This document shows, in pieces, positions 38,462 through 60,489 of a stretch of DNA of 64,000 nucleotides. Position 1 is the stretch's first letter. Each line of letters begins with the position of its first letter. Position numbers and translations under genes: made by a program. The DNA comes from Anaerolineae bacterium. Lineage in GTDB: Bacteria; Chloroflexota; Anaerolineae; Epilineales; JAHCIE01. Where the stretch lies: NCBI GenBank assembly GCA_046328535.1, contig JAXLWJ010000010.1, forward strand, positions 25,552 through 89,551, given 5' to 3'. Below the pieces are notes generated by a model. That model was given only the letters and a program-made list of their open reading frames with translations, did not search any database and was not told the origin of the DNA.

Positions 38462-38474
38462 GGCTCTCTCAGTT

Positions 38475-41275: not shown

Positions 41276-41353
41276 TGGATGTGGCAATAATCTCACCAAT
41301 CATAAGCTGCGCCAAACTGCCTGACTGCGTGCCATCGGGAGGCGAAGGAGCGA

Positions 41354-43189
41354 ATGACTCGTCAGCTTGCCAACCTTACCGGCCGTCTCGCCTGGCTGGC
41401 TCTCGTCGCCCTCGCCCTCCTTGCCCCGTTCCAGCCCACCAAACCCCTGCTCCAGACCCGCTACTCCGACCTGCACACCGCGGCCGCGCTCGCCGCGCTC
41501 GCCGTCGGCCTGTGGCTCGCCCACCTGATCCTCGCGCGCCGCCCGCCGCGTCTGTCCACCCCTGTGATCCTCGCCCTCGCCGTGTTCCTCGTCGTCGCCG
41601 ACCTATCCACCCTGTTCGCGCCGAGCAACCGCCTGGACGCGGCCAAGTTCGCCGTCGGCCTGGCCCTCGGCGCCGCCGTGGGCGCGGCCGTCACCGATCT
41701 GGCGGTCGAACCGCGCCGTCGCGCGCAGCTTGCCCTGGGACTCATCGCCGGCGCCGCCGTCGTCGCCGCGTTGGGGCTAGGGGAGTACGCCGGGCCTGGG
41801 CCTGTCGCGCGCTTCCTGACGCAGTTTCGCCCATCGTCCTCGCACGTCGGCGATGTTGTGCGCGTCAGCTCGACCTTCATCTACCCCACCATCACGTCAA
41901 TGTACCTGGAGCTGGCTTTGCCGTTTGTCCTGGCTGGCATCTGGCTGGCGCGGCGCGCGCGGCGGCGCGGCGCCGCCATCGTTCTCATGCTCGTCTTCGC
42001 GCTCATCGCCGAGGCCATCATCATCACCTTCACGCGCACGGGCCTGCTCTCGACAGCCGTCGTCGTGATGTTCATGGCCGCAGCGCGGTGGTGGTACGAG
42101 CGCCGCGTCGGCGCGTGGCAAGTCGCGCTGGCCGCGATGACCGTCGCCGTTCTGCTAGGCGCAACGACGTTCGTGACGCCGGCGCTCGCCCTCCGCCTGC
42201 GGACGGAAAACGACCGCGCGTGGTATGGCGCGGAGTACATCGCCGACCCGCTGCCGCCGCTGGCCGCCGGCGAGCAGGCGACGGTGAGCGTGCGTGTCGT
42301 GAATACGGGGGAGATGGCCTGGCAGCCTACGCCGGGGCGAGCGTTCAGCGTGTCGTATCACTGGCTGGCCCACAACGAGGACTCCGTCGCGGAGTGGGAC
42401 GGCGCGCGCGCGCCCATTGCCCAGGTCGTGGCGCCGGGCGAGGCGGTGACAGTCACCCTGCCTGTCGTCGCGCCACGCCAGGCGGGGCCATTTCGCCTGG
42501 CGTACGACATGGTGCAGGACAACGTGACGTGGTTCAGCGCGAAAGCTGTTCCGATGGGGATCGTCCCGGTCGTTATCGCGCCGCGCCGGGCCGCCCCTGC
42601 CGTCCAGCCCGCGCCCATCCGCCTCGCGCCGATGCCGCAGGCCAGCGCCGTTGACCTGTCGCCCGGCCGGCGCACTCTGTGGGCCGTGGCGCTGACAATG
42701 GTGCGCGATCGGCCGCTCCTCGGCGTCGGCCCGGACAACTTCCGCTTTGCCTATGGCCGCTACACGGGGCAGACCGTCTGGGATAGTGGGCTGCACACCA
42801 ACAATATGTACATCGAGATGTTCGCGGACACCGGCGTGCTTGGCGGCCTCCTGTTCCTGGTGTTCAACATCGCCGTTATCGGGACGGCCATCCAGGGTCT
42901 ACGAATGGTAGGGCGAGCGGGGGCCGCGAATGAAGACTCTATCGTGCCACAAGCCGCGGCTCTTTCGAGCGATGCGGCGTTCGCCGTGGCGGCGGCGGCG
43001 GCGGCCGGCCTGATCGCCTGGGCCATCCACGGTTTCGTGGACTACTTCTACGAGTTCCTGCCGCTGGTTTTCATCTACTGGATCATCATCGGGCTGGCCG
43101 CAAGCGGCGCCGTACACGCGCTCAATGGAACCGCTGCGCCTCTCGGCGAGCCATCCGACTCTGCCGCGCCGCCCACCGCCGATGCCTAG
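41354..43189 (+). CDS. O-antigen ligase/polymerase-like (Wzy_C) polytopic membrane protein with inserted beta-sandwich domain
   Basis: Many hydrophobic spans. Motifs ITFTRTGLLS, RTLWAVALTMVRDRPLLGVGPDNF and HTNNMYIEMFADTGVLG. A ~110-aa soluble insert (GEQATVSVRVVNTGEMAW...FRLAYDMVQDNVTWF) sits in a loop. Confidence 0.75.
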   Translation: MTRQLANLTGRLAWLALVALALLAPFQPTKPLLQTRYSDLHTAAALAALAVGLWLAHLILARRPPRLSTPVILALAVFLVVADLSTLFAPSNRLDAAKFAVGLALGAAVGAAVTDLAVEPRRRAQLALGLIAGAAVVAALGLGEYAGPGPVARFLTQFRPSSSHVGDVVRVSSTFIYPTITSMYLELALPFVLAGIWLARRARRRGAAIVLMLVFALIAEAIIITFTRTGLLSTAVVVMFMAAARWWYERRVGAWQVALAAMTVAVLLGATTFVTPALALRLRTENDRAWYGAEYIADPLPPLAAGEQATVSVRVVNTGEMAWQPTPGRAFSVSYHWLAHNEDSVAEWDGARAPIAQVVAPGEAVTVTLPVVAPRQAGPFRLAYDMVQDNVTWFSAKAVPMGIVPVVIAPRRAAPAVQPAPIRLAPMPQASAVDLSPGRRTLWAVALTMVRDRPLLGVGPDNFRFAYGRYTGQTVWDSGLHTNNMYIEMFADTGVLGGLLFLVFNIAVIGTAIQGLRMVGRAGAANEDSIVPQAAALSSDAAFAVAAAAAAGLIAWAIHGFVDYFYEFLPLVFIYWIIIGLAASGAVHALNGTAAPLGEPSDSAAPPTADA

Positions 43190-45098
43190 CCCTCATGGCG
43201 CGGGAGCAGGCGATTGGTCCGCCCGCCTCGACGTGGGCCTACTCGTCCTCCTGCTCGCCACATTGTTCCTCCTCCCCTTCGAGCAGCCAGCACCGCTGCT
43301 GGCGCTGGGCGGCATCGTCGTCACCAACCTGGAAGCGCTGCTGTTTCTCGCGCTCGCTGTCTGGCTGTGCCGCGTGGCCTTGCGGCCCGATACTCTTCGG
43401 CCGCCGTTCTTCGCCTGGCCGGCGGCCGCCATCGTTCTCTCCGCCTGCCTCTCCGCGCTATTCGCAGTCTCCTTCCAGATCAGCGCCCTGAAGGTGGCGG
43501 CGCGCTGGAGCCTCGGCGTCGTGTTCGCCGTCGCCCTCGCTGATACCCTGCGCCGCACGCGCCGCGACCGCTTCGCCTTCGCCGCCATCGTTCTCGGCGC
43601 GACCACGGCGGCGGGGCTTGGCCTGCTGGAGATGGGGGGCAGTTCGTGGGCCGCCGGTTTCCTGGCCCTGTTCAGGGACGCGCCCGCGCAACTCGGCCCG
43701 ACAGCTCGCTTGAGCGCCGCCTTCGGCTCCGCCAACGCGGCGGCCATGCTGTTGGAGACTGCGCTCTGCCTGGCGGTCGGCCTGGCGCTCGATGCGGCCC
43801 ACCGGCGCCGGCGTCACGCCCAGGCAGTCTGGGCCGCCTGCCTCGTCGCGCTTGCCGCCGCTCTCGCGCTGACCTACAGCCGGGGCGGCATCGTCGCAGG
43901 CGCGGTGGGGCTGATGGTCGCGCTCGTCCTGGCTATTCCGCACAGGAAGCAGCTGAATGGGCGCCGACTCGGCTGGACTGTCCTGGCAATGGCGGCTGTT
44001 GTCGTCGCCGTCCTGGCGCTCAACCCTGTCCTCCGCGCTCGCCTCGCCGTCTGGGATGGGCGCCCGCTCGACGCGGCGGTCGTCAGCGCGCCCCCGACCC
44101 TGTCGGCAGAAGCCGGGAGCGCCTTGCCTGTCTCGGTCAACGTGACGAACAGCGGCCGTCTCACCTGGCGAGCGAACGGCCCTGACAGCGTCGCCCTGGG
44201 CTACCACTGGTTGACCGAGGACGGGCAGGGCGTCGCCGAGTGGGACAACGCCCGACTACCGCTGCCCGCCGATGTGCCGCCCGGCGGCGCCGTGACGCTG
44301 GCGGCGGCGCTCGTCGCGCCCCCAGCGGGCCGCTATGCCCTGGCGTGGGACGTGGTCCACGCGCCGAATGAGTGGCTGGGGAGCCGTGAGGCGATGCCCG
44401 GCTGGAGCGCCGTCGTCACCACCGGCGCAGGCGGGACGCCCTTCCCCCCGTCTAGCCGCGGCCGAGCGCCCGCGCTCCCACCGGACCGGGGGCAGTTGTG
44501 GCGGGCGGCGCTCCAGATGGCGCGGGAGCATCCCATCCTGGGCGTCGGCCCGAGCAACTTCCGCCGCCTCTACGGGACGTATCTGGGCCTGGCGACCTGG
44601 GATGATCGGATTCTAGCTAATAACCTGTACCTGGAACTCCTGGCCGATGTCGGCGTGGTGGGGCTGCTCGCCTGGGGTTGGCTGTTCGCGAGCGCTGCCG
44701 CGCATCTGTGGCGCGCTTTGCCGTCGCCCCGCTTGCCTGCCCCGCTCGCCCGCGGGGTTGAAGGACGGACAGATGCGAATTTGGGGCAATCTCCTCCCAT
44801 TTCTGGCCCCCTCTCCCCATGGGAGAGGGATGGGGTGAGGGTCTTGAAATCTAGCGAGCGGATTAAGACCCTCACCCAACCTCTCCCAAAGGGAGAGGGG
44901 GCAGATCTGTCCGCCCTTGAACTCCGGGTGGGAGAGGAGTCGTGGCCGTTCGCCATTGCGCTGCTGGCGGCGTTCGCGGCGTGGCTGGTCCACGGGCTGA
45001 CCGACGTCGCGTTCGAGACCACGGGCATCTACCTCCTGCTGTGGGCGCTCGTCGGCCTCGCGGCGAGCCTGAACGCGGCCCCCGATGTCCAGCGTTAG
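43182..45098 (+). CDS. O-antigen ligase/polymerase-like membrane protein, paralogue 2
   Basis: Same architecture (TYSRGGIV, GQLWRAALQMAREHPILGVGPSNF, ANNLYLELLADVGVVG, insert ALPVSVNVTNSGRLTW...YALAWDVVHAPNEWL). ATG 43182 overlaps the upstream stop by 8 nt. Confidence 0.75.
   Translation: MPSPHGAGAGDWSARLDVGLLVLLLATLFLLPFEQPAPLLALGGIVVTNLEALLFLALAVWLCRVALRPDTLRPPFFAWPAAAIVLSACLSALFAVSFQISALKVAARWSLGVVFAVALADTLRRTRRDRFAFAAIVLGATTAAGLGLLEMGGSSWAAGFLALFRDAPAQLGPTARLSAAFGSANAAAMLLETALCLAVGLALDAAHRRRRHAQAVWAACLVALAAALALTYSRGGIVAGAVGLMVALVLAIPHRKQLNGRRLGWTVLAMAAVVVAVLALNPVLRARLAVWDGRPLDAAVVSAPPTLSAEAGSALPVSVNVTNSGRLTWRANGPDSVALGYHWLTEDGQGVAEWDNARLPLPADVPPGGAVTLAAALVAPPAGRYALAWDVVHAPNEWLGSREAMPGWSAVVTTGAGGTPFPPSSRGRAPALPPDRGQLWRAALQMAREHPILGVGPSNFRRLYGTYLGLATWDDRILANNLYLELLADVGVVGLLAWGWLFASAAAHLWRALPSPRLPAPLARGVEGRTDANLGQSPPISGPLSPWERDGVRVLKSSERIKTLTQPLPKGEGADLSALELRVGEESWPFAIALLAAFAAWLVHGLTDVAFETTGIYLLLWALVGLAASLNAAPDVQR
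44807..44901. mobile_element. Palindromic (MITE/REP-like) element inserted in frame within the paralogue-2 coding sequence
   Basis: Left arm ccccctctccccatgggagagggatggggtgagggtctt, right arm aagaccctcacccaacctctcccaaagggagaggggg. Translates to ...PLSPWERDGVRVLKSSERIKTLTQPLPKGEGA..., which has no counterpart in paralogue 1. Confidence 0.55.
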
Positions 45099-46407
45099 CC
45101 GGCCGCTGGCTGCCGCGCGCCGCGCCGCCGCCGACCCGATCACGCGGAGCTGGGCCATCGTCACGGCTGGCAGCGTGGCGCGGCTAGGGCTGGGGTTCGT
45201 GGCGAGCGTGCTCATCGCCCGCGAGCTGGGCGTGGGTGACTTCGGCGTGTATGTGAGCCTGGGGGCTGTCGCCAGCATTGTCGGCGCGGTGGCGGATTTT
45301 GGGTTGACGGAAGCGGCGGTCAAGCGCATCGCCGAGGTCTGGAGTGGGGACGAGACGGCGGCGCGGGAACGGGGGCAGGTGTTCTTCTGGGTGCGGCTGG
45401 CAGCAGCCGCTGGCGTTGCGCTGATGGGTGTCCTGCTCTTCCTCGCGTTCGCCGCCGTCGTTCCGGCCAACACGCTGCCCGTCCCCCTCGTCGCCCTGAC
45501 CCTCGGCGGTGTCGTGGCGGCGGCCTTGAGCGGCGCGGTGAGCGCGATGCTCCAGGCCATTGGGCGCTTCGGGCGGCTGTCGGCGGTCATGCTGGTGAAC
45601 TCAGGCGCGACCGCGCTGGCGGCCCTGGCGCTGGCGTATCTCGGTCGGCTGACGGTGGTCACGACCCTCGTCGTCCTCGGCATCGGCGCATCGTTCCTGA
45701 GCTTTGGCGTCGGCCGCTATCTCTTGCCGCGCGGCTGGACGCTGCGGCCGCCGACGCTGGCGCGGGTGAGGGATGAGACGCGGCGGCTGGCGCGTTTCGC
45801 CGGCTGGGTTGGCGCCGCCAACAGCCTGGCCATGCTGGCCGCCTACCTCGATGTCCTGCTGGTGGGGTGGTGGAGTGGCGCGACGAGCGCGGCGTTCTAC
45901 GGGCTGGCGCTCAACCTGGCGAACAAAGTAGACGTCGTCAATCAAAGTTTGCATGCGGTCACGCTACCCGCCGCCGCAGGCGTCTTCCAGGCCGACGCCC
46001 TGCTCGCCTATATCCGCCGCAGTCTGCTGCGGAGCGCCGCCATCAGTGTCATCCTGCTGCCCCTGTTCTGGCTGGCGGCGCCGTTCATCGGCTTCTTCTA
46101 CGGCGCGACCTACCTGCCGGCGGCGACGACGTTCGGCCTGCTGCTGGCCGTCGTCATCTTTGACATCTTCACCCAGCCGATGCTGCTGCTCGCCCTCCCC
46201 CTCAATGAGCCGCGACTGCTGGCCGCCGCCGATGCGGTGCGCGTCGTCGTCCTGGTGGCCGTCGGCGTATGGCTCATCCCGCTCTACGGCGCGAATGGCG
46301 CGGCGATCGCGCGCCTGATCGCCCGCTGCGTCGGTGTCGCGCTCGTCCTGGCGATCCTGGCCGTTCGCTATCGCCAGGGCGCGCTGCGCTTCGAGCGCCG
46401 GCCGTAG
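45085..46407 (+). CDS. Wzx-like oligosaccharide flippase (polysaccharide biosynthesis protein, MOP superfamily)
   Basis: 440 aa, polytopic. N-terminal GSVARLGLGFVASVLIARELGVGDFGVY pattern. 14-nt overlap with the upstream gene. Confidence 0.7.
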   Translation: MSSVSRPLAAARRAAADPITRSWAIVTAGSVARLGLGFVASVLIARELGVGDFGVYVSLGAVASIVGAVADFGLTEAAVKRIAEVWSGDETAARERGQVFFWVRLAAAAGVALMGVLLFLAFAAVVPANTLPVPLVALTLGGVVAAALSGAVSAMLQAIGRFGRLSAVMLVNSGATALAALALAYLGRLTVVTTLVVLGIGASFLSFGVGRYLLPRGWTLRPPTLARVRDETRRLARFAGWVGAANSLAMLAAYLDVLLVGWWSGATSAAFYGLALNLANKVDVVNQSLHAVTLPAAAGVFQADALLAYIRRSLLRSAAISVILLPLFWLAAPFIGFFYGATYLPAATTFGLLLAVVIFDIFTQPMLLLALPLNEPRLLAAADAVRVVVLVAVGVWLIPLYGANGAAIARLIARCVGVALVLAILAVRYRQGALRFERRP

Positions 46408-46408
46408 T

Positions 46409-46557
46409 GCAAGGACACCGGACCTGTTAGGCGACCCACGCCCGCCTGTCCGTCGAACGGGCAGGCTACGACGGGCAAGCCTGAGAGGCTCCCTCTCAGC
46501 CCCTCGGGCTTCCATCCAGTAGCGCGACGCTTCGAGCGTCGCGCGGGCGCACGATGC
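46409..46557 (+). repeat. ~150-nt multi-hairpin repeat element, copy 2
   Basis: Aligns with 35405-35563. Starts immediately after the stop of the upstream plus-strand gene, as copy 1 does. Confidence 0.8.
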
Positions 46558-46579
46558 CGAACATGTCTCTGACTATGCC

Positions 46580-47719
46580 CTAGCCTGTCATGCCCCCGTA
46601 CAACTCGCGCAGATCGGTGACGGTGCGTTCCAGGCTATAGCGCGTGTGAGTGGCGTTCAACGCGGCCTCGGCCGCACAAGACGACGCATCGTCGAGCGCC
46701 GCGCCGATGGCCTCGGCCAGACGTTGGGGATCGCCCGGCGGGGCGACATACGCGGGCGGCATGAGGTCTGGCAGGAGGCCGACCGCCGTGCCGGCGGTCC
46801 TACGGCCGCACGCCGCCGCCTCCAGCGTCACAAGCTCCTGGCCCTCGTGCCGCGACGAGAGGACGCACAGGTCGGCGGCGCGATACCACGCCGCCAGCGC
46901 CGCATGGGGAACAGCGCCGTGGAAGGTCACGCGCCCTCTCAGCCCTGGCTGGGCGGCGAGGGCGTCAAGCCCACCGCGCAGCGGCCCGTCGCCGACAATG
47001 TGCAGGTGGATGCCGGGCGCGTCGCGCTGGAGACGGGCCACGGCCGCCAGCAGCGTGGCCTGGTCCTTCACGGGAACCAGCGACGCCACGTGCAAGAGCG
47101 CTGGGTGGCCGTCAAGGGCAATCGCGCACCCGTCGCCGTCGCCGCGGGGGTGAAAGAGATCGGTGTTCACCCCCAGGGTGAGCGGGACGAGGCGGGGCGG
47201 CGGGACGCGCGGCGCGGCAAGGCGGCGCAGGTAGGACGAGCCAGCGGTGACGCGCCCGGCGCGGCGCAGGGTGACGCCAATCAGGGCGCGATTGATGGGG
47301 CTGAGTTGCGCGCCATAGCCGATGTCGCGCAGCCCCACCAGCTCGCCGCCAAGCAGCGACGCGAGGGCGGGGACGCTGAGCAGCCGGCCCGCTGCGACGG
47401 CGACAAAGCCAGGTTCGTCGGCCCACATCGCGTGCAGCGCGTCGAATGGGCGGCGACGATGTTCGGCGACGATGGCGGCCACGGCTCGCCGCAGCAGACC
47501 CAACCGCGCGGCGCCCCCGACAAGGCGGCCGCCCTGCGGGCGCACCTGGATGTCGCCGATGGCGTAGGACCGCCGGTGATGCGGGTAGCGCAGCGGGAAC
47601 ACGGTGACATCGGCCTCGGCCGCCAGCCGATGCGCCAGGTCGAGCTGCACCGGGATGCACCAGTCGTCCGCGGCGGCGCTGAAGCCGGGGATGACGATGC
47701 CAACCCGCCGCCGCGTCAC
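46580..47719 (-). CDS. GT4-family glycosyltransferase
   Basis: SRHEGQELVTLEAAACG (E-x7-E) motif. GTG 47719 forms a GTGA overlap with the upstream stop. Confidence 0.8.
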   Translation of the reverse strand: MTRRRVGIVIPGFSAAADDWCIPVQLDLAHRLAAEADVTVFPLRYPHHRRSYAIGDIQVRPQGGRLVGGAARLGLLRRAVAAIVAEHRRRPFDALHAMWADEPGFVAVAAGRLLSVPALASLLGGELVGLRDIGYGAQLSPINRALIGVTLRRAGRVTAGSSYLRRLAAPRVPPPRLVPLTLGVNTDLFHPRGDGDGCAIALDGHPALLHVASLVPVKDQATLLAAVARLQRDAPGIHLHIVGDGPLRGGLDALAAQPGLRGRVTFHGAVPHAALAAWYRAADLCVLSSRHEGQELVTLEAAACGRRTAGTAVGLLPDLMPPAYVAPPGDPQRLAEAIGAALDDASSCAAEAALNATHTRYSLERTVTDLRELYGGMTG

Positions 47720-48882
47720 GCCAGACTCTCGTAAAGCGCGGCGAGCTGCCGCGCCATCGCCGCAAAGCTCAAGGCGGCCTCGAAATGCTCCCGGACAGCG
47801 GCGGAGCGCGTGGGGATGTCGGCCGGACAGATGCGCAGAGCGCCCTCGGCCAGCGCGTCCGGTCGGCCGGGCGGGAAGAGCGCGCCGTGGCAGCCGCCGT
47901 CGGTCATGGCGCGGAAGGACGGGATATCCGTCACGACGGGGATAACGCCGCACGACATGGCCTCGAGCACGGCGCAGCCGCTGAACTCGCGGCGGCTGGC
48001 CTGGAGCAGAAAGTCCGCGCTATTGTAGATGTCGGGCATGCGCTCATACGGCGCAACGCCGCGAAAGTGGACATGCGCGCGCAGGCCGGGCCGCTGCTCG
48101 CAGAAGGCGCGCATCTGTGGCAGAAGCTCGTCGGTGAGGTAGTGCATGTACAGCTCGGCCTGCGGCCAGGCCGCGAGGATGCGCTCGAACCCCGCCAGCG
48201 CCGTCAGCGGGTCTTTGATGGGGGCGAGGCGGCCGACCCACAGGAACACCGGCTGGCCCGCCATGCCGGTGCGTTGGCGCGCCTCGCGCCGAGGCGCCGG
48301 CGCGAAGTCGCTGGACGTCTCCATCACCGCCACGACGCGCTCGTCCCCCGCCAGGACACCGGCCGCGATGAACGGCTGCGCGTGGGCGTGGGTGGTGAAG
48401 AGGAGGCGGGCGGCGCGGCGGACGTTGGCGCGCTGGAGGGCGCGCCCGACGCGGGAGGCGGCCGGGTAGCCGCCGTGGTAGTGGAGGACAATGGGCGGCG
48501 TCCGGCCGAGCGCGTGGCTGAGCAGGAACAGGTTGAGGTTCAGGCCGATGCCGTGGACGTGGACGATGTCCGGCTGAAGCGCCCGCACCGCTTCGACAGC
48601 GCGAAACGCCGGCTCGTACAACGCCGGGTCGCGCTGACGGAGGCGGCTCGCGATATCGGCCGCACCCCGCGCGATGCGGCCTGACGCCACAAAGTGATGC
48701 GTCACGCCGCCGTCCATGGTGCGGGCATCCGTCGGGTACAGATGCACAACATGGACATCGTACCCCAGCGCGGCCATCTCGCGGGGTAGGGCGCGGTGAA
48801 TGGGGACGCGCGCCAGGTACGCCGCCACGTCGCGCTCGGCGACGCGGTCGTCATAGTGCAGGACGGCGTAGCACACCCTCAT
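47716..48882 (-). CDS. GT4-family glycosyltransferase
   Basis: MRVCYAVLHY... start and REFSGCAVLEAMSCGVIPVVTD (E-x7-E) motif. ATGA overlap with the upstream stop. The longer 720-aa ORF is a frame artefact. Confidence 0.8.
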   Translation of the reverse strand: MRVCYAVLHYDDRVAERDVAAYLARVPIHRALPREMAALGYDVHVVHLYPTDARTMDGGVTHHFVASGRIARGAADIASRLRQRDPALYEPAFRAVEAVRALQPDIVHVHGIGLNLNLFLLSHALGRTPPIVLHYHGGYPAASRVGRALQRANVRRAARLLFTTHAHAQPFIAAGVLAGDERVVAVMETSSDFAPAPRREARQRTGMAGQPVFLWVGRLAPIKDPLTALAGFERILAAWPQAELYMHYLTDELLPQMRAFCEQRPGLRAHVHFRGVAPYERMPDIYNSADFLLQASRREFSGCAVLEAMSCGVIPVVTDIPSFRAMTDGGCHGALFPPGRPDALAEGALRICPADIPTRSAAVREHFEAALSFAAMARQLAALYESLA

Positions 48883-49700
48883 CGCCGCACCATGTCTAGC
48901 ACGAAGAAGCGCCCCCGGTCGAGCAGCGGTGGGTGAGCGGCGAACGGACGCTCCAGCGCGCCAAGCGCCTGCGGGATCGGAGGCGGGAGACCATGCAGGG
49001 TATGCGGCGGACGCAGCGCGCCGAGGCTGTAGGCGCGCTGAAGGCGGAAGTGCCGGGCGAAATAAGCGCCGAAGGCTTCGCGCGGCAAGTACAAGAAATG
49101 TGGGACGGGCTGGCCGCCAATCGTGTAGACGCGGCGGGATTGGCTGCCGAGCGTCCGCGCCGCCCGCCACCGCCCCCGCGCCGCGAGAGCCAGCCACTCC
49201 CACGCGCTGCGCCGGCTCAGCATATGGACGATGAGATGCCCGCCCGGCCGAAGCAGCCGCGCGGCGGCGCACGCGAACGCCGCCAGGTCCGGCAGCGTAT
49301 TGAGGCCGGCGAACGTCGAGACCACGCCGTCGAAGCGTGCGTCCGCCCGAATCGCCAGCGCCGCCGCGTCGCCGACGAGCGCCCGCACCCGCTCGCCGAC
49401 CCCCGCCCGCGCAGCTTTGTGGCGCAGCATCTGCGCCATGCCCGGCGAGATGTCCAGGGCTGTGACCTGCATGCCGTGTTGAGCCAGAAAGATGGCGTCC
49501 GTGCCTGTGCCGCACGTCACGTCCAGGATGTGGTCGCCCGGTTCGAAGACGGCGAGAACGTTGGCCCACAGGATGCGGCGCATCCAATCGTCGCCCTGGA
49601 CCTGGCTGTCGTAGTCGGCGGCAATGGAGTCGTAGGCTGCGGCCACCAGGTTGGCCGCCGGCGGTGACGACGGGTGAACATCTAGAATAACGTCGCGCAA
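48879..49700 (-). CDS. Class I SAM-dependent methyltransferase
   Basis: ILDVTCGTGTDAIFLA motif. Paralogue of the N-terminal domain of 52377-53957. Start is uncertain (TTG 49700 or a downstream in-frame GTG). Confidence 0.75.
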   Translation of the reverse strand: MRDVILDVHPSSPPAANLVAAAYDSIAADYDSQVQGDDWMRRILWANVLAVFEPGDHILDVTCGTGTDAIFLAQHGMQVTALDISPGMAQMLRHKAARAGVGERVRALVGDAAALAIRADARFDGVVSTFAGLNTLPDLAAFACAAARLLRPGGHLIVHMLSRRSAWEWLALAARGRWRAARTLGSQSRRVYTIGGQPVPHFLYLPREAFGAYFARHFRLQRAYSLGALRPPHTLHGLPPPIPQALGALERPFAAHPPLLDRGRFFVLDMVRR

Positions 49701-49725
49701 AGCTGCACCATGCCTTTAAGAGGCT

Positions 49726-49760
49726 GACCACGGAACAGAGGGAACACACGGACAGGGAAA
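49726..49760. repeat. Purine-rich repeat half-element (gaccacggaa... type)
   Basis: gaccacggaacagagggaacacacggacagggaaa shares the gaccacggaa lead with 3921-3965. Confidence 0.5.
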
Positions 49761-49784
49761 TGCGCGCTATGGCATTCCGCTGGC

Positions 49785-49839
49785 GGTGGAGAGCCAACTC
49801 CACCGCCCCTCGGCGGCGCTGGAGATGGCTCTCCAGCGC
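49785..49839 (+). repeat. Double-hairpin repeat element, copy B
   Basis: H1 ggtggagAGCCaactccacc at 49785-49804 and H2 gcgctggagaTGGCtctccagcgc at 49816-49839. Sits in the only sizeable gap of the minus-strand operon. Confidence 0.8.
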
Positions 49840-49855
49840 GAGCAGGATGCAGCAA

Positions 49856-50917: not shown

Positions 50918-50926
50918 TATGACACC

Positions 50927-53957: not shown

Positions 53958-55360
53958 GAAGTCCCGCCCTTCTCGACCTCGCCCGACGTGAGCGCCATCC
54001 CCAGCCGGCCGACGCGCGCATTCACGAACGTCCTGGCGATGCGCAGCGGGTCCTTGCGGCCGTTGGTGAGCTGCTTGTGCAGGGCGACCTCGTTCACCAT
54101 CCAGCGCGTGGCGAAGGAGTAGAAGCGCTTCGAGTGGCGGCCGGCGACGGTCAGGTCGCGGTCGGTGCGCTCGTCCCACGGCCTGTCGCTTAGCACGCGG
54201 CCCTCGACCTCGGCGTAGTAGGCCGTCCCTTTGATGGGGTAGGCGACGGTCGTCAGGAAGATGTCCGGGTTGGACTTCTTGAGGTGTTCGACCGTCTCCT
54301 CCAACTGCGGCACGTCCTCGCCCTCGTAGCCAAGCATGATGAACATCCCCGCCTGGATGCCGCGCTTCTGGAGCAGGCGCGTCATGCGCTGCACGTCCTC
54401 GACGTTCGTGCGCCGCGACATGGCGTCCAGAACGTGCTGCGAGCCGCTCTCCGAGCCGATCCACAGGCGGAAGCAGCCCATCTCGGCCAGGGTATCTATG
54501 ATGTGCTCGTTGAGGCGGTCCGCCCGCGAGATGCACTCGAACGGGAGGCGCAGCCCGCGCCGCTTGAGGAGGTCGGCGTAGGCCAGGAACCAGCGCGGGT
54601 GGATGGTCAGCACGTCGTCGGCGTACCACAGCATGTCGGGCCGGTAGCGCTCGACGAGCTGCTCGACCTCGGCGACGACGTTTTCCGGCGAGCGGCGGCG
54701 GTGGGTATGCCCGAACACCGTGTGGCTGCACCACTTGCACGTGTACGGGCAGCCGCGCGCCGTGATGAGCGACGCCGACCCCATGCCGTGGTGGGTACGC
54801 CAGGTCTCGACGTAGTCCGACATGGGGATGGCCTCGCGGTCGGGGAAGGGCAGCTCGTCCAGGCGCTGGAGGTAGGGGCGCGGCGCCGTCCGCGTCAGTA
54901 TTCCGTCGTCGTCCCGATAGACGAGGCCCGCGATGTGGCGCATGTCGCGCGGGCCGTAGCGGGCCAGGTGCGGCAGCAGCTCCGCCAGCGTTGCTTCCCC
55001 CTCGCCCACAACAACCACGTCCGCGCCGCGCGCCAGGTAATCCTCGGCGTAGTGGGGCGGCTCCGGCCCCCCCAGGACGACGAGCGAGCCCGCCGCCTTC
55101 GCCTGCTGGATCATAGGCAGAATCCAGCGCTTGGTCATCAGGTTGCAGTAGAGGCCCACGACGGCGGGGCGCTCGTGCTGGAGGACGGCGGCGAAGTCCT
55201 GGGGCCGGCGGAACGTCGCGTCGAAGACGCCGACGGCGAAGCCGCGCGCCTTGAGGTACGACGAGATGTAGAGCAGCCCGAGCGTCGGGTAGGGCTTCAT
55301 CACCTTCCGCTCGTGGGGGTCCTCCGACAGGTAGTAGCCGTGGGCCAGCAGAATATCCAT
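53954..55360 (-). CDS. Cobalamin-binding-domain radical SAM enzyme (subfamily 1: LLAHGYYLSEDPHE N-terminus)
   Basis: MDILLAHGYYLSEDPHERKVMKPYPTLGLLYISSYL..., VVLGGPEPP and TARGCPYTCKWC motifs. Confidence 0.8.
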   Translation of the reverse strand: MDILLAHGYYLSEDPHERKVMKPYPTLGLLYISSYLKARGFAVGVFDATFRRPQDFAAVLQHERPAVVGLYCNLMTKRWILPMIQQAKAAGSLVVLGGPEPPHYAEDYLARGADVVVVGEGEATLAELLPHLARYGPRDMRHIAGLVYRDDDGILTRTAPRPYLQRLDELPFPDREAIPMSDYVETWRTHHGMGSASLITARGCPYTCKWCSHTVFGHTHRRRSPENVVAEVEQLVERYRPDMLWYADDVLTIHPRWFLAYADLLKRRGLRLPFECISRADRLNEHIIDTLAEMGCFRLWIGSESGSQHVLDAMSRRTNVEDVQRMTRLLQKRGIQAGMFIMLGYEGEDVPQLEETVEHLKKSNPDIFLTTVAYPIKGTAYYAEVEGRVLSDRPWDERTDRDLTVAGRHSKRFYSFATRWMVNEVALHKQLTNGRKDPLRIARTFVNARVGRLGMALTSGEVEKGGTS

Positions 55361-55365
55361 AGGTC

Positions 55366-56781
55366 TCACGCCAGCTTTGGCGCCGGGTACAGCGCCTCGA
55401 CAAGGCGCTGTTCGACCGGCCAGCGGTAGAAGTCGCGCTGCACGCGCCAGCGCGCGACCGCCTGGAGCGGCCGCGCCAGCGGGTGCGCGTGGCGGCCGTA
55501 GGCGTACTTCTGGTAGAACTTGAAGCGCTCGACGCGCGCCCACTTCTCGGCCGACACCCACGGCCCGGTCGAGCCAACATAGTCGAAATCGGCCCACTCT
55601 TCCAGCGTCGTCGGGAACGGGTACGCGCCGTCCAGGCTATCGGCGATGTCATTGCCTGGATAGGGGCGGTAGAAGAAGATGGCGACGTCGAAGTCGGCGC
55701 TCATCTCCCGCAGACGCCGAGCGACCTGCAGGCCAGCCTCGAAGCTCTCGTCCGGCTCATCGGGGAAGCCGACGATGAAGTTCCAGATCGCGCCGATGTC
55801 GCGCCGCGCCAGCTTCTCCGCCGTGGCGAACACCTGGGCGATGGTAATGTCCTTCTTGATGCGCCTGAGCATCTCGTCCGTGCCAGCTTCGACGCCGACC
55901 ATGACCCGCCGCAGCCCCGCCTGCCGCGCCAGGGCCAGCGCCGCGTCGGGCAAACGCGCGCCCTGGTCCGCCCGCATCGTCGCCGTCCAGATCGCGTCCA
56001 GACCGGCGGCGATGAAGGCCTGGCTGATGTCGGCGACGCGCTGGGCGCTGGTGAAGAACGTCTCGTCCTGGAACGCAATCTCGGTGAAGCGGTGGCGCTG
56101 CCACAGCGCGCCCAGTTCGTCGGCCATGCGCTGCGGCGCGAGGCCATGCCAGCCGCGGCGGTAGACGAACGGGTCGGCGCAGAAGGCGCAGCGGAAGCGG
56201 CAGCCGATGGACGAGATGTAGTCGAGCTGGCGCTTGCCCTTGCGGGCGAAGTACGCCTCGACGGGGATCAGGTCGTAGTTCAGCGGGGGCAGCGCGTTCA
56301 CGTCGCGCAGCGGGCGGGGTATGTTCTGGATGACCGCGCCGTGTCTGTCGCGCCAGGTCACGCCGGCGACGCCCGCCAGGTCGCGCCCCGCCGTGTAGCG
56401 CTCGACGATCTCAGCGAATGTCTCCTCGCCCTGGCCGCTGACCACGGCATCCACCGTCGGCTCGTCCAGGCACTCGCGCGGAAACAGCGACGGGTGCCAG
56501 CCGCCCCAGACGACGGGCAGATCGGGCCGCGCGGCTTTGACCGCGCGAGTCACGGCCAGGGCGTCGCGGATCGGCGCGCCGGTGAGGACGGTCACGCCGA
56601 AGCACAGGGCGTCGCGGGCCTCGGCCAGAGCGACGTTGAGCGCGTCGGCCTCGAGCCGCGCGTCTATGATTCTGACGTCGAAGCGCGCCGGGTCGAGGGC
56701 CGAGCTGACGGCGAGCAGGCCGAGGGGCATCGTCCAGAACACGGCGTAGGGGTTGTAGAGCACAATCTTGGGGCGGGTCAC
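55366..56781 (-). CDS. Cobalamin-binding-domain radical SAM enzyme (subfamily 2)
   Basis: KIVLYNPYAVFWTMPLGLLAV..., VVWGGWHPS and SSIGCRFRCAFC motifs. GTG start after AAGGGGG. Confidence 0.8.
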   Translation of the reverse strand: MTRPKIVLYNPYAVFWTMPLGLLAVSSALDPARFDVRIIDARLEADALNVALAEARDALCFGVTVLTGAPIRDALAVTRAVKAARPDLPVVWGGWHPSLFPRECLDEPTVDAVVSGQGEETFAEIVERYTAGRDLAGVAGVTWRDRHGAVIQNIPRPLRDVNALPPLNYDLIPVEAYFARKGKRQLDYISSIGCRFRCAFCADPFVYRRGWHGLAPQRMADELGALWQRHRFTEIAFQDETFFTSAQRVADISQAFIAAGLDAIWTATMRADQGARLPDAALALARQAGLRRVMVGVEAGTDEMLRRIKKDITIAQVFATAEKLARRDIGAIWNFIVGFPDEPDESFEAGLQVARRLREMSADFDVAIFFYRPYPGNDIADSLDGAYPFPTTLEEWADFDYVGSTGPWVSAEKWARVERFKFYQKYAYGRHAHPLARPLQAVARWRVQRDFYRWPVEQRLVEALYPAPKLA

Positions 56782-56828
56782 ACAACCCCCTTATACCAAA
56801 CGCGCAATGACAGCTTTTCCAATTGGTG

Positions 56829-58358
56829 TTACTCCGGCTGCGCCGAGGGTATCGCGGCCGCCTCGGCGCTCATCGCCAGCGGCAGGGCGCTCACGCTGCG
56901 GGGTGACTGTTCCGCCAGCCGCGCCAGCCGCCACCGCGCCCAGGGCAGCGTCAGCGTGTGATAGGCGGCGGCCGCTGCCTGGCGCACAGGATGGCGCGGC
57001 GCGGCGCCGAGTCTGTCCGGCTGCGCCCGCCACGCGCGCCGCGCCCGGAACTCCTTGTGCAGAACGGTGTGCAGCTGGCGGTAGAACGCGGTGGAGTACG
57101 GGCCGCGATAGAGCATCGCCAGGTCGGCGCTGTCCTGCCAGTTCTGCTTGTCGCCTAGCTGCATGCGAATGCTATCGTAGAACTTCGTGCCGGGCAGCGG
57201 GTAGGAGACGGACATGCCGATGTCATCCGGCGCGCACTCCCGCACCATGCGCAGTGTCGCCGCGATATCGTCGCGGTCTTCGCCGGGGTAGCCGAACTGG
57301 AGGAAGAAGCCCACGGCGATGCCGGCGCGGCGCAGCTTCTCCGTCGCGGCGTAGATTTGCGCGACTGTCGTGCCTTTGTCCATCGCGTCGAGAATCTTTT
57401 GCGAGCCGGACTCCGCGCCCACCCACACGGTGTCGCAGCCCGCCATCGCCAGCGCCTCCACCACGCTGTCTTTGATGAGGTCCACGCGCAGCAAGCACTT
57501 GAAGGGGACGACGGTGTCGGCCGCCTGCGCCAGCCGCCCGAACTCTTCGAGCCAGCCGGGCTTGAGGCCGAGGATGTCGTCCACGAACCAGATGTGGTCG
57601 GGGGCGTAGGTCGCCTTGAGCCAGGCCATCTCGGCGACGACGTTCTGCGGGCTGCGAACGTTGTAGCGCTGGCCCCAGATGGGTTTGGCGCACCAGTTGC
57701 AGTGGTACGGGCAGCCGCGCGTCGTGACCATGTTCATGGAGAAGTAGCCGTGGCGTTCCTGCCACAGGCGGCGGTAGCGCGGCACGTCTACCAGGTCCCA
57801 GGCCGGGAACGGCAGGCTGTCCAGGTCCCGGATTAGGGGACGGGGCAGCCCCGGCTGCGCCCCGCCCGCCCCAGCCGGCTGCGACACTCCGGCGACGGAC
57901 TCGATCCCCCGCGTGCTGCGCCCCGTCAGCGCGTCCAGCAGCTCTAGCAGCGTCATCTCGCCTTCGCCGCGCAGAGCATAGTCCGCCCCCTGCGCGAAGT
58001 ACAGCGCGGCGTGGTCCGTCGCGTCCGCCCCGGCCACGATGACGGCGCAGCCGCGCGCCTTCGCCAGCGCAATCATGCGGAACGCGGCCTCGCGCATCCG
58101 CAGCAGGCACATCTTGCTGAGGTAGTTGAAGTTGTCCTCGAACAACACGGCGAAGTGGGGCCGGTGCGCGTCCAGGGCCGCCGCCCATTCGTCCTCGGAC
58201 GCGGCGAGCATCGCGTCGAACAGGGCCACGTCGTAGCCGCGCTGGCGCAGGAGAGACGCGGCGTACAGCGCGCCCAGCGGCGGGTAGGGCTGCATCGCGT
58301 CCCACAGCTTCGGGTCGAACCGCAGGTAGTAGCTTTGTCCCAACAATACGTCTGTCAT
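56829..58358 (-). CDS. Cobalamin-binding-domain radical SAM enzyme (subfamily 1)
   Basis: MTDVLLGQSYYLRFDPKLWDAMQPYPPLGALYAASLL..., VIVAGADAT and TTRGCPYHCNWC motifs. Confidence 0.8.
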   Translation of the reverse strand: MTDVLLGQSYYLRFDPKLWDAMQPYPPLGALYAASLLRQRGYDVALFDAMLAASEDEWAAALDAHRPHFAVLFEDNFNYLSKMCLLRMREAAFRMIALAKARGCAVIVAGADATDHAALYFAQGADYALRGEGEMTLLELLDALTGRSTRGIESVAGVSQPAGAGGAQPGLPRPLIRDLDSLPFPAWDLVDVPRYRRLWQERHGYFSMNMVTTRGCPYHCNWCAKPIWGQRYNVRSPQNVVAEMAWLKATYAPDHIWFVDDILGLKPGWLEEFGRLAQAADTVVPFKCLLRVDLIKDSVVEALAMAGCDTVWVGAESGSQKILDAMDKGTTVAQIYAATEKLRRAGIAVGFFLQFGYPGEDRDDIAATLRMVRECAPDDIGMSVSYPLPGTKFYDSIRMQLGDKQNWQDSADLAMLYRGPYSTAFYRQLHTVLHKEFRARRAWRAQPDRLGAAPRHPVRQAAAAAYHTLTLPWARWRLARLAEQSPRSVSALPLAMSAEAAAIPSAQPE

Positions 58359-58365
58359 GCGCACC

Positions 58366-60489
58366 TCATGCCGGGGCCGCGATGGCCTGGCGGTAGACCG
58401 CCAGCGTCTGCCGCGCCGTCTCGCGCCACGAAAGCTCACTCGCGCGCGCCAGGCCGCGCTCGCGCATCTGGCCGGCGAGCGGCCGGTCACTCACCACGGC
58501 GGTGAGCGCGTCGGCCAGCTCGCCGACGGACAGCGGGTCTACCGTGAGCGCGGCGTCGCCGGCCACCTCGGCCAGCGACCCGGCCCGCGTGGTGACGACC
58601 GGCGTCCCGCACGCCATCGCCTCGATGACCGGCAGGCCGAAGCCCTCGTAGAGCGAGGGGAACGCGAACACCTCGGCCATGTTGTAGAGGCTAACCAGGT
58701 CGTCCGATGGGACGTAGCCGAGGAAGTGGACATCGCCGCCCACGCCGAGCGCCGCGATGCGCTCATACAGCGCCTTGTAGTCCCAGCCGAGCTTGCCGAC
58801 GAGGAGCATCTGATGCGGCAGGCCCGCCGCCCGCAAGCGGGCGTAGGCTTCGACGAGCCGGACGAGGTTCTTGCGCGGCTCGATGGTGCCGACATAGAGA
58901 ATATAGCGCCCATGCAGCCCGTAGCGCTGTCGCGTTGCGGCGACCTGGGCGGTGGAGACAGGCTGGAAGCGGGCGGCGGCCGCCTCGTAGATGACATGCA
59001 CCTTGCTCTCGGGTACACCCAGCAAGCGCACGATATCGGCCCTGGCGCTGTGGGACACGGCGATAATCGCCGCCGCCCGCCGCGCGATCATCGGCACGAA
59101 CGGCCGCATGACAACGTGCTGCCGCATGGGGTGGAGGCGCGGAAAGAGCGACAGCGTCATGTCGTGGATCGTGACGACGAACGGCGTCTGGCACGACAGC
59201 GGGGCGGTGAAGTTGGTGAAATGGCACAGCACCGGCTGCTCGGCGCGCAGGGCGGCCGGCAGCACCATGTGCATCCAGATGCTGCGGTTGGGGAAGGCGT
59301 AGCGCGGCGAGAGGCGGCGGCCGGCCGCCTCGCCTTCGACGCTGCGGTTCGAGAGGAGCAGATAGTCATGCTCCGCGTCTTCTTCGACAAGGTGCGCGAG
59401 CAGGTTGCTGGTATAGTAGCCGACGCCGGACTTCGCGCCCCGCAGCGTCGTCGCGTCGAAGCCAATCGTCGGGCGGCGCGGCGCGGCGTGGGGCGCGATA
59501 CCGTTCGCGGGGCGCGGCGTGACCGGAACCGCCGTCTCAAGCTCCGAGGGAAGAGCGTCATTCGTGAGGCCGTAGCGGGTGAGGCGGGCGGTGTAGGCGG
59601 CGAGGATGCGGCGGCCGTGGCCGTCGAAGTGGCCTTTGCAGCAGTCAGGCGACAGCACGATCGTGTCGGCGTGGGCGGGGGCTTCACGTTTGAGCTGCGC
59701 GATCTTGCGCCGCTGAATCCACTGCTCGGCGCGAGCGCCCCACCGACCGCCGAGGAATCGCTCGCCGGCTGTCTTGAGCCGCGCGCGGACCGGCCCCAGG
59801 TGGTCGCTCGCGTTGGGCGGCTGTGCGTCTCGCGCCTGGGGCAGATAGGCGTCCGCCCAGCTATTCGCGTCGCGCATCTGCTGGTGGACGCGACGACCAT
59901 AGACCGGCGTCATCTGCGCCAGCTCGCGGGCGGTGAACAGGTTGCGCTCGTCCAGCGACAAGCGCGTCTCGGCGAGCAGGTAGTTGGGGCAGAGGCGTTG
60001 GCGTCTCAGGGCGGCCACGCGCACGACGGTCGTGGTCAGCGCGCGCGCCAGCCACAGGCGTCCCGGCGCGGTCACCAGGAGGTAGTCAATGTCGTCGCCG
60101 GGCGTCGGGGCGCCGGCGGCGAGAGCGCCGGTGACGATGACCGATCGGACGAAGGGGAGGCTGCCAAGCACGTTGCCCCAGCGACGAGCGGTCGGCCAGA
60201 GCGCCGCCGCCGCCTGATCGCGCGCGCGGCGCCGCGCGACGATGCCCTCGCGGCCCGTCAGGCAGTAGAAGCCATCGCGTGACGCGATCCGCTCGGCCAG
60301 CCACGCGTCGCCCACCAGGGCGGCATGGACGGCCTCGGCGGTCGTCGCCTCGCCGATCAGATAGTGGGCAATCTCGGCCTCATTCAGAGGAAAGTCGAAG
60401 ATGTCGGCATAGAGCAGGGTCTTCAGAATCGCCACGCCCAGCGACGTGGCGCTCTCGGCTGGCCGTGTCAAAGCGACCTCCCCGCACAA
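58366..60489 (-). CDS. Fusion protein: nucleotidyltransferase-fold-like N-terminal domain plus GT4 glycosyltransferase
   Basis: The N-terminal ~330 aa contain GALAAGAPTPGDDIDYLLV (G...DxD-type motif). The C-terminal half has PSLYEGFGLPVIEAMACGTPVV (E-x7-E). Start is uncertain (TTG 60489 or GTG 60435). Confidence 0.7.
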   Translation of the reverse strand: MCGEVALTRPAESATSLGVAILKTLLYADIFDFPLNEAEIAHYLIGEATTAEAVHAALVGDAWLAERIASRDGFYCLTGREGIVARRRARDQAAAALWPTARRWGNVLGSLPFVRSVIVTGALAAGAPTPGDDIDYLLVTAPGRLWLARALTTTVVRVAALRRQRLCPNYLLAETRLSLDERNLFTARELAQMTPVYGRRVHQQMRDANSWADAYLPQARDAQPPNASDHLGPVRARLKTAGERFLGGRWGARAEQWIQRRKIAQLKREAPAHADTIVLSPDCCKGHFDGHGRRILAAYTARLTRYGLTNDALPSELETAVPVTPRPANGIAPHAAPRRPTIGFDATTLRGAKSGVGYYTSNLLAHLVEEDAEHDYLLLSNRSVEGEAAGRRLSPRYAFPNRSIWMHMVLPAALRAEQPVLCHFTNFTAPLSCQTPFVVTIHDMTLSLFPRLHPMRQHVVMRPFVPMIARRAAAIIAVSHSARADIVRLLGVPESKVHVIYEAAAARFQPVSTAQVAATRQRYGLHGRYILYVGTIEPRKNLVRLVEAYARLRAAGLPHQMLLVGKLGWDYKALYERIAALGVGGDVHFLGYVPSDDLVSLYNMAEVFAFPSLYEGFGLPVIEAMACGTPVVTTRAGSLAEVAGDAALTVDPLSVGELADALTAVVSDRPLAGQMRERGLARASELSWRETARQTLAVYRQAIAAPA

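Follow-up and report, generated by a model that had tools for sequence, protein, structure and literature searches.

A glycan-linked cassette of radical SAM enzymes and methyltransferases in Chloroflexota and other bacterial phyla

What is made by a bacterial locus in which genes for the assembly and export of a glycan lie side by side with five radical S-adenosylmethionine (SAM) enzymes? The question is raised by a 64-kb stretch of contig JAXLWJ010000010.1 from an Anaerolineae bacterium. In this stretch, called the window below, a block of 19 kb joins glycan assembly and export genes to a cassette of radical SAM genes. The answer that we favour, at somewhat better than an even chance, is that the block is a glycoconjugate biosynthesis locus with a conserved, horizontally shared tailoring cassette that acts on a carrier-linked sugar before flipping and ligation. 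This answer builds on the gene content of the block, the identity of its protein domains, its conservation across phyla, its linkage to glycan genes and a series of domain fusions. Judging from gene neighbourhoods, the product of the cassette is probably a hitherto unknown, heavily modified cell-surface sugar or glycolipid.

Gene calling by listing of open reading frames (ORFs), GC3 frame analysis and start codon inspection left the 13 genes of the block where the initial annotation had placed them. Ten genes, co-directional on the minus strand from 60489 down to 46580, form a predicted operon. They converge on three plus-strand genes (41354-46407), and Pfam agrees with the gene calls in assigning to the latter two Wzy_C proteins and one flippase of the Polysacc_synt type. 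The minus-strand row encodes four radical SAM enzymes with a cobalamin (B12)-binding domain (rsB1 to rsB4), one radical SAM enzyme of the SPASM type, the methyltransferase proteins mt1 and mt2 and, as first annotated and upheld by Pfam, three glycosyltransferases of family GT4 (gtA, gtB and gtC). The first of these carries an N-terminal domain named NT here. In the two nearest relatives of the locus, found in related Anaerolineae metagenome-assembled genomes (MAGs), all 13 genes are present in identical arrangement with 76-88% nucleotide identity. Nucleotide synteny spans window positions 41337-60580 and ends there; the flanks differ in one relative (L005), and the stretch of the other (L004) ends at a contig end. 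The limits of synteny thus coincide with those of the annotated locus, which speaks against chance. Judged by this synteny, the 13-gene block is inherited as a unit across the three Anaerolineae genomes.

Beyond these close relatives, conservation was surveyed with rsB4. A scan of one genome per GTDB species yielded 208 confirmed relatives, and 80 loci were kept with flanks of up to 10 kb, onto which all window proteins were mapped. The rsB4 homologues of the 80 genomes, which belong to Chloroflexota, Acidobacteriota, KSB1 and Gemmatimonadota, show 61-93% identity; rsB2 led to two more loci, from Latescibacteria and Gemmatimonadetes. Carriers among Chloroflexota belong to Anaerolineae, Ardenticatenaceae, Promineifilaceae, Caldilineales, Thermoflexales, Thermomicrobiales, Herpetosiphonaceae and Chloroflexia, and those among Acidobacteriota to Thermoanaerobaculaceae. 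Across these loci the order NT - rsB1 - (rsB2) - rsB3 - mtN - mtC - rsB4 - (SPASM radical SAM) - (mt1) is found, where mtN and mtC are the two domains of mt2 and brackets mark optional members. The genes rsB1 and rsB3 are adjacent in 28 of 30 loci, mtC and rsB4 in 51 of 60, and in 37 of the 39 loci that have both NT and rsB1, NT forms a gene of its own immediately upstream of rsB1. As far as gene order tells, the conserved unit is this cassette of NT, radical SAM and methyltransferase genes, not the whole Wzx/Wzy locus. Identity of rsB4 between phyla (64-69%) is as high as within Chloroflexota outside the clade of the window, which suggests lateral spread of the cassette. The literature searched contains no description of it.

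A strong clue to the role of the cassette comes from NT. The gtA protein has 707 amino acids (aa), with an uncertain start codon (60435-60489), and its N-terminal part of about 330 aa lacks a Pfam match. NT itself matched neither Pfam nor the PDB by sequence or profile search. A profile search of 1.84 billion cluster representatives detected a family of 6,648 members, 2,469 of them at E <= 1e-30, and all homologues that bear a source name are labelled hypothetical. In an AlphaFold2 (AF2) model (pLDDT 89.3) a winged helix is combined with an alpha/beta core and a helical domain. Foldseek gave weak matches to this model, with a best E of 9.5e-3 and TM values of 0.2-0.6 on the target. Many of them are proteins with a nucleotidyltransferase (NTase) fold, namely MNT antitoxins, ANT(4'), AadA, LinB and GlnE, and a few are winged-helix regulators that cover the N-terminal part. 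The motif G121-x11-D133-x-D135, whose three residues are invariant in 40 homologues, fits the superfamily signature hG[GS]x9-13Dh[DE]h (G121-A-x10-D133-I-D135) except that the second residue is A instead of G or S. Because of this fit, we call NT NTase-like and consider it a putative domain of the Pol-beta type.

Fusion of an NTase-like domain to a GT4 enzyme, already noticed in the window, recurs elsewhere and in several forms. NT precedes the GT4 domain of gtA (GT4a) in the window and in protein P0241, and the reverse order is found in the Latescibacteria locus (L085) and in proteins P0252, P0325 and P0374. In P0268 NT is fused to a family 2 glycosyltransferase (GT2), and in P0303 to Wzy_C. 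The Wzy_C identity of P0303 was taken from a precomputed Pfam match, as its N-terminal part gave no significant BLASTP match to wzy1; the length and coverage of three longer relatives (741-776 aa) imply the same fusion. In other phyla, GT4a orthologues with 38-50% identity either adjoin NT or are fused with it. Independent fusions of NT to three kinds of glycan-assembly proteins are, in our opinion, strong evidence that NT and the cassette headed by it act in membrane glycoconjugate synthesis.

Gene neighbourhoods were then considered in the 38 loci whose sequence extends for 8 kb or more to either side of rsB4 (fully flanked loci). Glycan-assembly genes are present in 30 of them, and directly adjoin the core in 17. 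They add up to 88 genes, 29 of which lie within 400 nucleotides (nt) of a core gene. Glycosyltransferases of the GT-C type are frequent (PMT_2 in 24 loci, GT87 in 11), and the variable neighbours also include GT4 enzymes resembling gtC and GT4a, GT2, several Wzx-like families, Wzy_C, LCP, an ABC exporter and an amidohydrolase. As a rough control, the same glycan query set was applied to two loci with a solitary rsB2 gene and to the 44.8 kb of the window outside the block, and matched nothing there. Variable assembly modules around a constant core are the pattern expected of a sugar-tailoring module. The initial annotation had also considered that the homologues might normally be unlinked to glycan genes, with a coincidental adjacency in the window; linkage is, however, found in the 30 loci mentioned and in the Latescibacteria locus.

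The same survey bears on a different reading, in which the cassette would make a soluble small molecule (a cofactor, a solute or a nucleoside-type metabolite) and its adjacency to glycan genes would lack functional meaning. Eight of the 38 fully flanked loci have no recognised glycan neighbour, the rsB2 family occurs also with QueG-like and Rieske genes, and a nucleobase or nucleotide would be a fitting substrate for an NPPY methyltransferase together with an NTase fold. However, such a reading does not account for the independent fusions of NT with GT4 (in both orders), GT2 and Wzy_C, for the frequency of glycan genes beside the core, or for the inheritance of the 13-gene block as a unit. We regard it as improbable.

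Individual loci show variants of the cassette. A reduced version (L087 1168-9123) consists of NT, the SPASM enzyme, rsB1, rsB4, a methyltransferase, an amidohydrolase, GT87 and PMT_2. On this metagenomic contig it directly follows glycogen/alpha-glucan genes (GH57, a GT5 synthase, a GlgC-like gene and GH77), a neighbourhood that hints at a glucan substrate in that lineage. In another locus (L084 8076-8791) two opposite-strand genes of 119 aa are inserted between rsB2 and rsB3, and the cassette is otherwise intact; one of the inserted genes has a weak match to DUF5678.

The chemistry of the cassette was approached through its radical SAM enzymes. The four cobalamin-domain enzymes and the SPASM-type enzyme reported at first inspection are all borne out by Pfam. 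All four rsB proteins contain a B12-binding domain (PF02310, 37-70 bits vs a cut-off of 32.1) and a Radical_SAM domain, all above gathering score, and the CxxxCxxC motif starts at residues 216, 194, 204 and 196 of rsB1, rsB2, rsB3 and rsB4, respectively. They make up two pairs of paralogues, rsB1/rsB3 with 36% identity and rsB2/rsB4 with 30%. The SPASM enzyme scores 41.9 bits with PF13186 (cut-off 21.5), and its half-motif is C275-x12-G288-x4-C293, one residue shorter than the C-x13-G-x4-C initially given. Only five C-terminal cysteines are present (C-x12-G-x4-C ... C-x2-C-x-C), as compared with seven in the full motif.

Membership in characterised families, which would have turned the proposal of radical tailoring of a glycan down, was not found. 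None of the five radical SAM proteins reaches the curated NCBIfam cut-off of any characterised family, and the SPASM enzyme reaches no SPASM equivalog. Among B12-dependent radical SAM enzymes, the families tested were BchE, HpnJ, HpnR, PhpK, ladderane-type, ApyD, methylases of methyl-coenzyme M reductase (MCR), BzaD and TsrM-type. The best matches (BchE, HpnJ, ladderane-type, PhpK, ApyD and ScmE) score about 77-138 bits against cut-offs of 360-750; the top score with a B12-dependent family is 137.5 bits, for BchE (cut-off 481). BchE is also the name given by JGI to many of the homologues. This annotation was rejected, as the score is far below the cut-off and a photosynthesis context is lacking.

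The closest solved sequence relatives are sugar-acting enzymes: AprD4 for rsB1 and rsB4, and the cytosylglucuronate decarboxylase BlsE for the SPASM enzyme. These matches cover the radical SAM core with modest E-values of 1e-9 to 1e-20. An AF2 model of rsB2 (pLDDT 89.7) has class B architecture, and matches MgmA, OxsB, TsrM, AprD4, CysS and TokK at E 1e-17 to 1e-21 (Foldseek). AprD4 has the same fold yet is a dehydratase; therefore the fold alone does not decide the activity of the rsB enzymes. AprD4, GenK/GenD1, BtrN and BlsE carry out radical reactions on sugar carbons, and in this they resemble what we propose for the cassette. Against closer kinship, the AprD4 profile of NCBIfam scores only 43-83 bits with a cut-off of 500, and the cassette lacks aminocyclitol genes; its context is envelope assembly, not antibiotic synthesis.

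Precedents closer to the envelope exist in lipid head-group pathways. Hopanoid head groups are tailored by the glycosyltransferase HpnI, the deacetylase HpnK and the B12-domain radical SAM enzyme HpnJ, with HpnP and HpnR as methylases, and the archaeal calditol synthase Cds performs a radical SAM step on a glycolipid head group (PMC13459092). In these pathways, as presumed here, radical SAM enzymes, some with a B12 domain, remodel or methylate a membrane-anchored glycoconjugate after a glycosyltransferase step, and some loci related to the window carry an amidohydrolase beside the radical SAM genes. The differences are also clear. The window has no hopanoid or tetraether genes, the HpnJ, HpnR and HpnH profiles give 42-108 bits where 225-650 would be required, and the cassette loci hold three to five radical SAM enzymes together with a domain of unknown function (DUF) of NTase fold, Wzx and Wzy_C.

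A further possibility is that the target of the radical SAM enzymes is the lipid moiety of a glycolipid, or the carrier lipid, whose alkyl or polyprenyl chains they might for instance cyclise or branch with methyl groups, and that the glycosyltransferases add the head group only. Lipid-modifying class B radical SAM enzymes are well documented (PMC13459092). The top NCBIfam matches of rsB1-3 include the ladderane-type family of lipid biosynthesis, HpnJ and HpnR, and GT4 enzymes, which often make glycolipids, show here weak matches to MGlcDAG, GlcNAc-PG and lipoteichoic acid (LTA)-anchor synthases of NCBIfam. All those matches of lipid type are, however, far below cut-offs. In addition, the 86 loci compared share no conserved gene of acyl, prenyl, fatty-acid or ether-lipid type, and NT is fused to glycosyltransferases and Wzy_C proteins, not to lipid enzymes. 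Modification of the lipid appears unlikely, although it is the alternative that we take most seriously.

Three methyltransferase domains are present in the block: the class I domains mtN and mt1, and mtC, a domain with an NPPY motif. The four domains initially counted, three of class I and one with NPPY, are one too many. In the window mtN and mtC make up a single ORF of 526 aa (52377-53957), and mtN is a separate gene in relatives. For instance, an 85%-identical relative (L001 12829-14648) has two methyltransferase genes of 332 and 251 aa, 66 nt apart, and most other loci do likewise. Either a recent fusion or the loss of a stop codon may explain the difference. With 101.8 bits in TIGR00537 (HemK2/MTQ2; cut-off 87), mtC is the only methyltransferase or radical SAM domain of the cassette above a curated NCBIfam cut-off. 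The context argues for a target other than the release factor that is the substrate of HemK2/MTQ2.

SPASM enzymes often act on peptides, and the enzyme mix resembles that of polytheonamide clusters. The alternative of a peptide substrate, left standing by the initial annotation, had to be weighed: a peptide or protein, encoded elsewhere, would be modified as in proteusins and the product glycosylated by the GT4 enzymes. Proteusin clusters of the polytheonamide type likewise combine multiple B12-dependent radical SAM enzymes with an N-methyltransferase and another radical SAM enzyme. Two further facts fit: mtC passes the cut-off of a protein-glutamine methyltransferase, and the best Foldseek match of rsB2 is MgmA, a protein-modifying C-methylase of MCR glutamine. 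A precursor gene is nevertheless missing from the cassette loci, where the conserved partners are glycosyltransferases, flippases and GT-C enzymes. No obvious precursor peptide had been noticed in the window, and no small ORF in or beside the cassette is conserved across the 86 loci. Proteases, leader-recognition proteins and exporters of peptides made by ribosomes and modified post-translationally (RiPPs) are absent as well, and the tightly packed row leaves no room for a precursor, with intergenic spaces of 155 nt at most. The peptide alternative is weakened by these observations, and we consider it quite improbable.

One more explanation is an anti-phage defence or conflict system that uses GT4, NTase and methyltransferase components. 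Indeed, gtA and gtC cross-match the Pfam family GT4-conflict, and, among the models of PADLOC, mt2 and mt1 match mad2 whereas the SPASM enzyme has a weak match to pVip. The same proteins have much stronger matches to generic GT4, methyltransferase and radical SAM families, however; no other component of a MADS or viperin system is found, four of the ten proteins have no PADLOC match, and the context is made of flippase, ligase and GT-C genes. A defence role is thus hardly credible. A known anti-phage system was rejected, as PADLOC gave only generic cross-matches (mad2, pVip and PDC-M51A).

The plus-strand genes deserve comment because the initial annotation described the locus as being of the Wzx/Wzy type. 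The flippase and the two Wzy_C proteins are there, and with several GT4 enzymes they cluster as in loci for O-antigen, capsule or exopolysaccharide. The name Wzy is, however, ambiguous: the Wzy_C domain is common to ligases and O-oligosaccharyltransferases besides polymerases. To our knowledge, Chloroflexota lack classical lipopolysaccharide, and for this reason the Wzy_C proteins may be ligases or O-oligosaccharyltransferases. The locus further differs from Wzx/Wzy loci in lacking an initiating phosphoglycosyltransferase, a chain-length regulator and nucleoside diphosphate (NDP)-sugar genes. We know of no Wzx/Wzy locus described with a cassette of multiple radical SAM enzymes. For GT4a the closest solved relatives are MshA, PimB and PimA, and no PDB sequence relative was found for wzy2. 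A large loop of wzy1 has a match to an NBR1-type Ig-like domain below threshold (23.2 bits vs a gathering score of 28). This domain is unusual in proteins resembling O-antigen ligases, and wzy2 has no such Pfam match. With the starts used, the ORFs of wzy1 and wzy2 overlap by 65 nt.

A comparison of a different kind is offered by the Arn pathway (ArnC, a GT2; ArnD, a deformylase; ArnT, a GT-C enzyme). In related loci the cassette is surrounded by a similar trio of GT2, amidohydrolase and GT-C of the PMT_2 type, which suggests that a polyprenyl-phosphate sugar is tailored first and then transferred outside the membrane. The analogy is one of logic only, as the window has GT4, Wzx and Wzy_C instead. 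NCBIfam TIGR04295, which we take to be a B12/radical SAM family of a rhizobial glycan-type cassette with oligosaccharide-type genes, might seem a counterpart. Scores of rsB1-4 with it are 25-81 bits against a cut-off of 400, and they are thus not members; the literature searched makes no mention of that system.

Taken as a working scheme, the favoured reading of a glycoconjugate locus with a tailoring cassette would run as follows. On the cytoplasmic side of the membrane, the GT4 enzymes would build a short sugar unit on a carrier, for which polyprenyl phosphate, a diacylglycerol-type lipid and a small acceptor are candidates. In this step GT4a would work with the NT domain, here as a fusion, and NT would probably activate or phospho-link a substrate through its NTase fold. 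The pairs rsB1/rsB3 and rsB2/rsB4 and the SPASM enzyme would then perform radical reactions on unactivated carbons of the sugar unit, most likely C-methylations and possibly also ring rearrangement, oxidation or epimerisation. The three SAM methyltransferase domains would add N- or O-methyl groups, with the NPPY domain probably methylating an amine or amide nitrogen. Finally, Wzx would flip the finished unit, and the two Wzy_C proteins would either polymerise the unit or attach it by ligation to an acceptor in the envelope. Remodelling of the sugar head group of a glycolipid by the radical SAM enzymes Cds and HpnJ provides a precedent (PMC13459092).

Several observations weigh against this scheme. 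As the initial annotation had pointed out, a priming phosphoglycosyltransferase, a chain-length regulator (Wzz) and an NDP-sugar gene are all missing from the genes of the 64-kb window. The score of mtC with the HemK2/MTQ2 family would also be compatible with a glutamine residue of a protein as target. Similarity to AprD4 and BlsE is no stronger than to the profiles of BchE, HpnJ or PhpK type, and the rsB2 fold fits methylases (MgmA, TsrM, CysS, TokK) and non-methylases (OxsB, AprD4) equally. The NTase assignment draws on the weak Foldseek scores and the motif described above. Of the eight fully flanked loci without a recognised glycan gene, three were checked by Pfam, and in these a six-gene core is flanked by unrelated genes; such stand-alone cores indicate that the cassette is a separable module. 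Lastly, the substrate, each of the reactions and the order of steps are read from neighbourhood and fusions.

Two of the families also occur outside the cassette. Homologues of rsB2 number in the thousands, and the best 120 are at least 59% identical; those with a name among them come from MAGs of Chloroflexota, Latescibacteria, Acidobacteria and Gemmatimonadetes. One homologue with 67% identity (L002 10001-13689; also L003) lies far from any glycan gene, a further point against the scheme. In L002 its neighbours, in an apparent operon, are a QueG-like protein (DUF1730/Fer4_16/HEAT) and a Rieske oxygenase. The rsB2 family has therefore a second, unrelated context. Similarly, a homologue of NT (L088) occurs without radical SAM neighbours, and this must be counted on the same side.

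Table 1. Features of the 19-kb block, in order of window position
Feature	Coordinates	Strand	Evidence or remark
wzy1, polytopic Wzy_C protein with sub-threshold match to NBR1-like Ig domain in loop	41354-43189	+	Pfam
wzy2, polytopic Wzy_C protein (O-antigen ligase/polymerase-like)	43125-45098	+	Pfam
Wzx-type flippase	45085-46407	+	Polysacc_synt 3e-18, Polysacc_synt_3 1.4e-16
GC-rich hairpin region between convergent units	46408-46579	.	Fold -89.6 kcal/mol, z = -5.4 vs shuffles
gtC, GT4 glycosyltransferase	46580-47719	-	Pfam; homologues in 31/80 related loci
gtB, GT4 glycosyltransferase	47716-48882	-	Pfam
mt1, class I SAM methyltransferase	48879-49700	-	Pfam
REP-like double-hairpin repeat	49765-49850	.	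Fills the sole large gap of the predicted operon
SPASM radical SAM enzyme	49856-50917	-	Radical_SAM 1.1e-11, SPASM 1.2e-10
rsB4, B12-binding-domain radical SAM enzyme	50927-52399	-	Pfam; most conserved member, cassette anchor
mt2 C-terminal MTS/HemK-type methyltransferase domain (mtC)	52377-53057	-	MTS 5.9e-23; NPPY at residue 435
mt2 N-terminal class I SAM methyltransferase domain (mtN)	53148-53957	-	Methyltransf_25, Methyltransf_11, residues 48-153
rsB3, B12-binding-domain radical SAM enzyme	53954-55360	-	Pfam, NCBIfam
rsB2, B12-binding-domain radical SAM enzyme	55366-56781	-	Pfam; optional cassette member, in 13/80 rsB4 loci
rsB1, B12-binding-domain radical SAM enzyme	56829-58358	-	Pfam; CPYHCNWC at residue 216
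gtA C-terminal GT4 domain (GT4a)	58366-59484	-	Glycos_transf_1 8.4e-37, Glyco_transf_4
gtA N-terminal domain NT, uncharacterised family of ~310 aa	59530-60489	-	Winged helix, predicted Pol-beta-type NTase fold, helical domain

Within the predicted operon, genes are tightly packed. The three start-stop overlaps of 4 nt claimed at the outset lie exactly at 47716-47719 (GTGA), 48879-48882 (ATGA) and 53954-53957 (GTGA). Spacers of 5-47 nt had been reported for the remaining junctions; those found measure 7, 47, 5 and 9 nt, but rsB4 overlaps mt2 by 23 nt if the start supported by homologues is used. The single larger gap (155 nt, 49701-49855) does contain a repeat, a double hairpin of the repetitive extragenic palindrome (REP) type. 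The repeat unit is about 70 bp long, with two GC-rich hairpins (CTGGAGAGCCATCTCCAG ... GTGGAGTTGnCnCTCCAC). Three copies are found in the window, at 34120-34240, 49740-49860 and 60610-60730; every one is intergenic, and two of them bracket or interrupt the predicted radical SAM operon. The 172 nt between the convergent stop codons are unusually structured (Table 1), and the predicted fold makes this region a likely bidirectional terminator or insulator. A scan of the locus for sigma-70 promoters and intrinsic terminators gave hits at background level only, and was thus uninformative about transcription units. GC content of the window is high (63-72%).

The other genes of the window are of general metabolism only, and a few features around the block can be mentioned. 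Just upstream of the predicted operon, a minus-strand ORF of 76 aa (60783-61013) has a strong AAGGAGG ribosome-binding site and a TTGACT...TATAAT-like promoter; it encodes a tail rich in Lys, Ala and Pro, and has neither a Pfam match nor a counterpart in any related locus. On the opposite side, a plus-strand ORF of 111 aa (39793-40128) can be aligned with short-chain dehydrogenases over their C-terminal half only (profile positions 135-236), and a citrate synthase gene occupies the space of the missing half. Because of this displacement, the ORF looks like a remnant at a rearrangement point. Two genes of the citrate synthase family are found in the window (6845-8173 and within 37016-39680); a methylcitrate cycle is suggested by the pairing of the second gene with a PrpD-type dehydratase.

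Altogether, the locus is of a known general kind, that of glycoconjugate loci, and its new part is the uncharacterised, conserved module of radical SAM, methyltransferase and NTase-like proteins found in multiple phyla. A more specific proposal, plausible in our judgement though short of even odds, is that the cassette makes, in at least five phyla, an undescribed head group, a sugar or similar to a cyclitol, which would carry several C-methyl groups and/or be rearranged by radical chemistry and would also be N/O-methylated; it would be built on a membrane carrier with the aid of a new NTase-fold family that is physically coupled to GT4, GT2 and Wzy_C enzymes; the product might be a major envelope component of Chloroflexota and other poorly cultured phyla of soil and sediment. 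Tailoring of sugars by radical SAM enzymes has so far been seen in a few pathways for antibiotics and lipid head groups; as a conserved multi-enzyme module for envelope glycans it is not known. The cassette offers four uncharacterised families of class B radical SAM enzymes, a SPASM enzyme and an unannotated family of enzyme-like domains. Envelopes are almost unstudied in its carriers (filamentous Chloroflexota, Thermoanaerobaculaceae, KSB1, Latescibacteria and Gemmatimonadota), lineages that abound in soil, sediment and wastewater. The identity of the product would annotate thousands of metagenome proteins now called 'hypothetical' or misnamed 'BchE' or 'YgiQ'. It would also add new glycan or glycolipid chemistry and possibly provide lipid or sugar biomarkers and enzymes able to functionalise C-H bonds.

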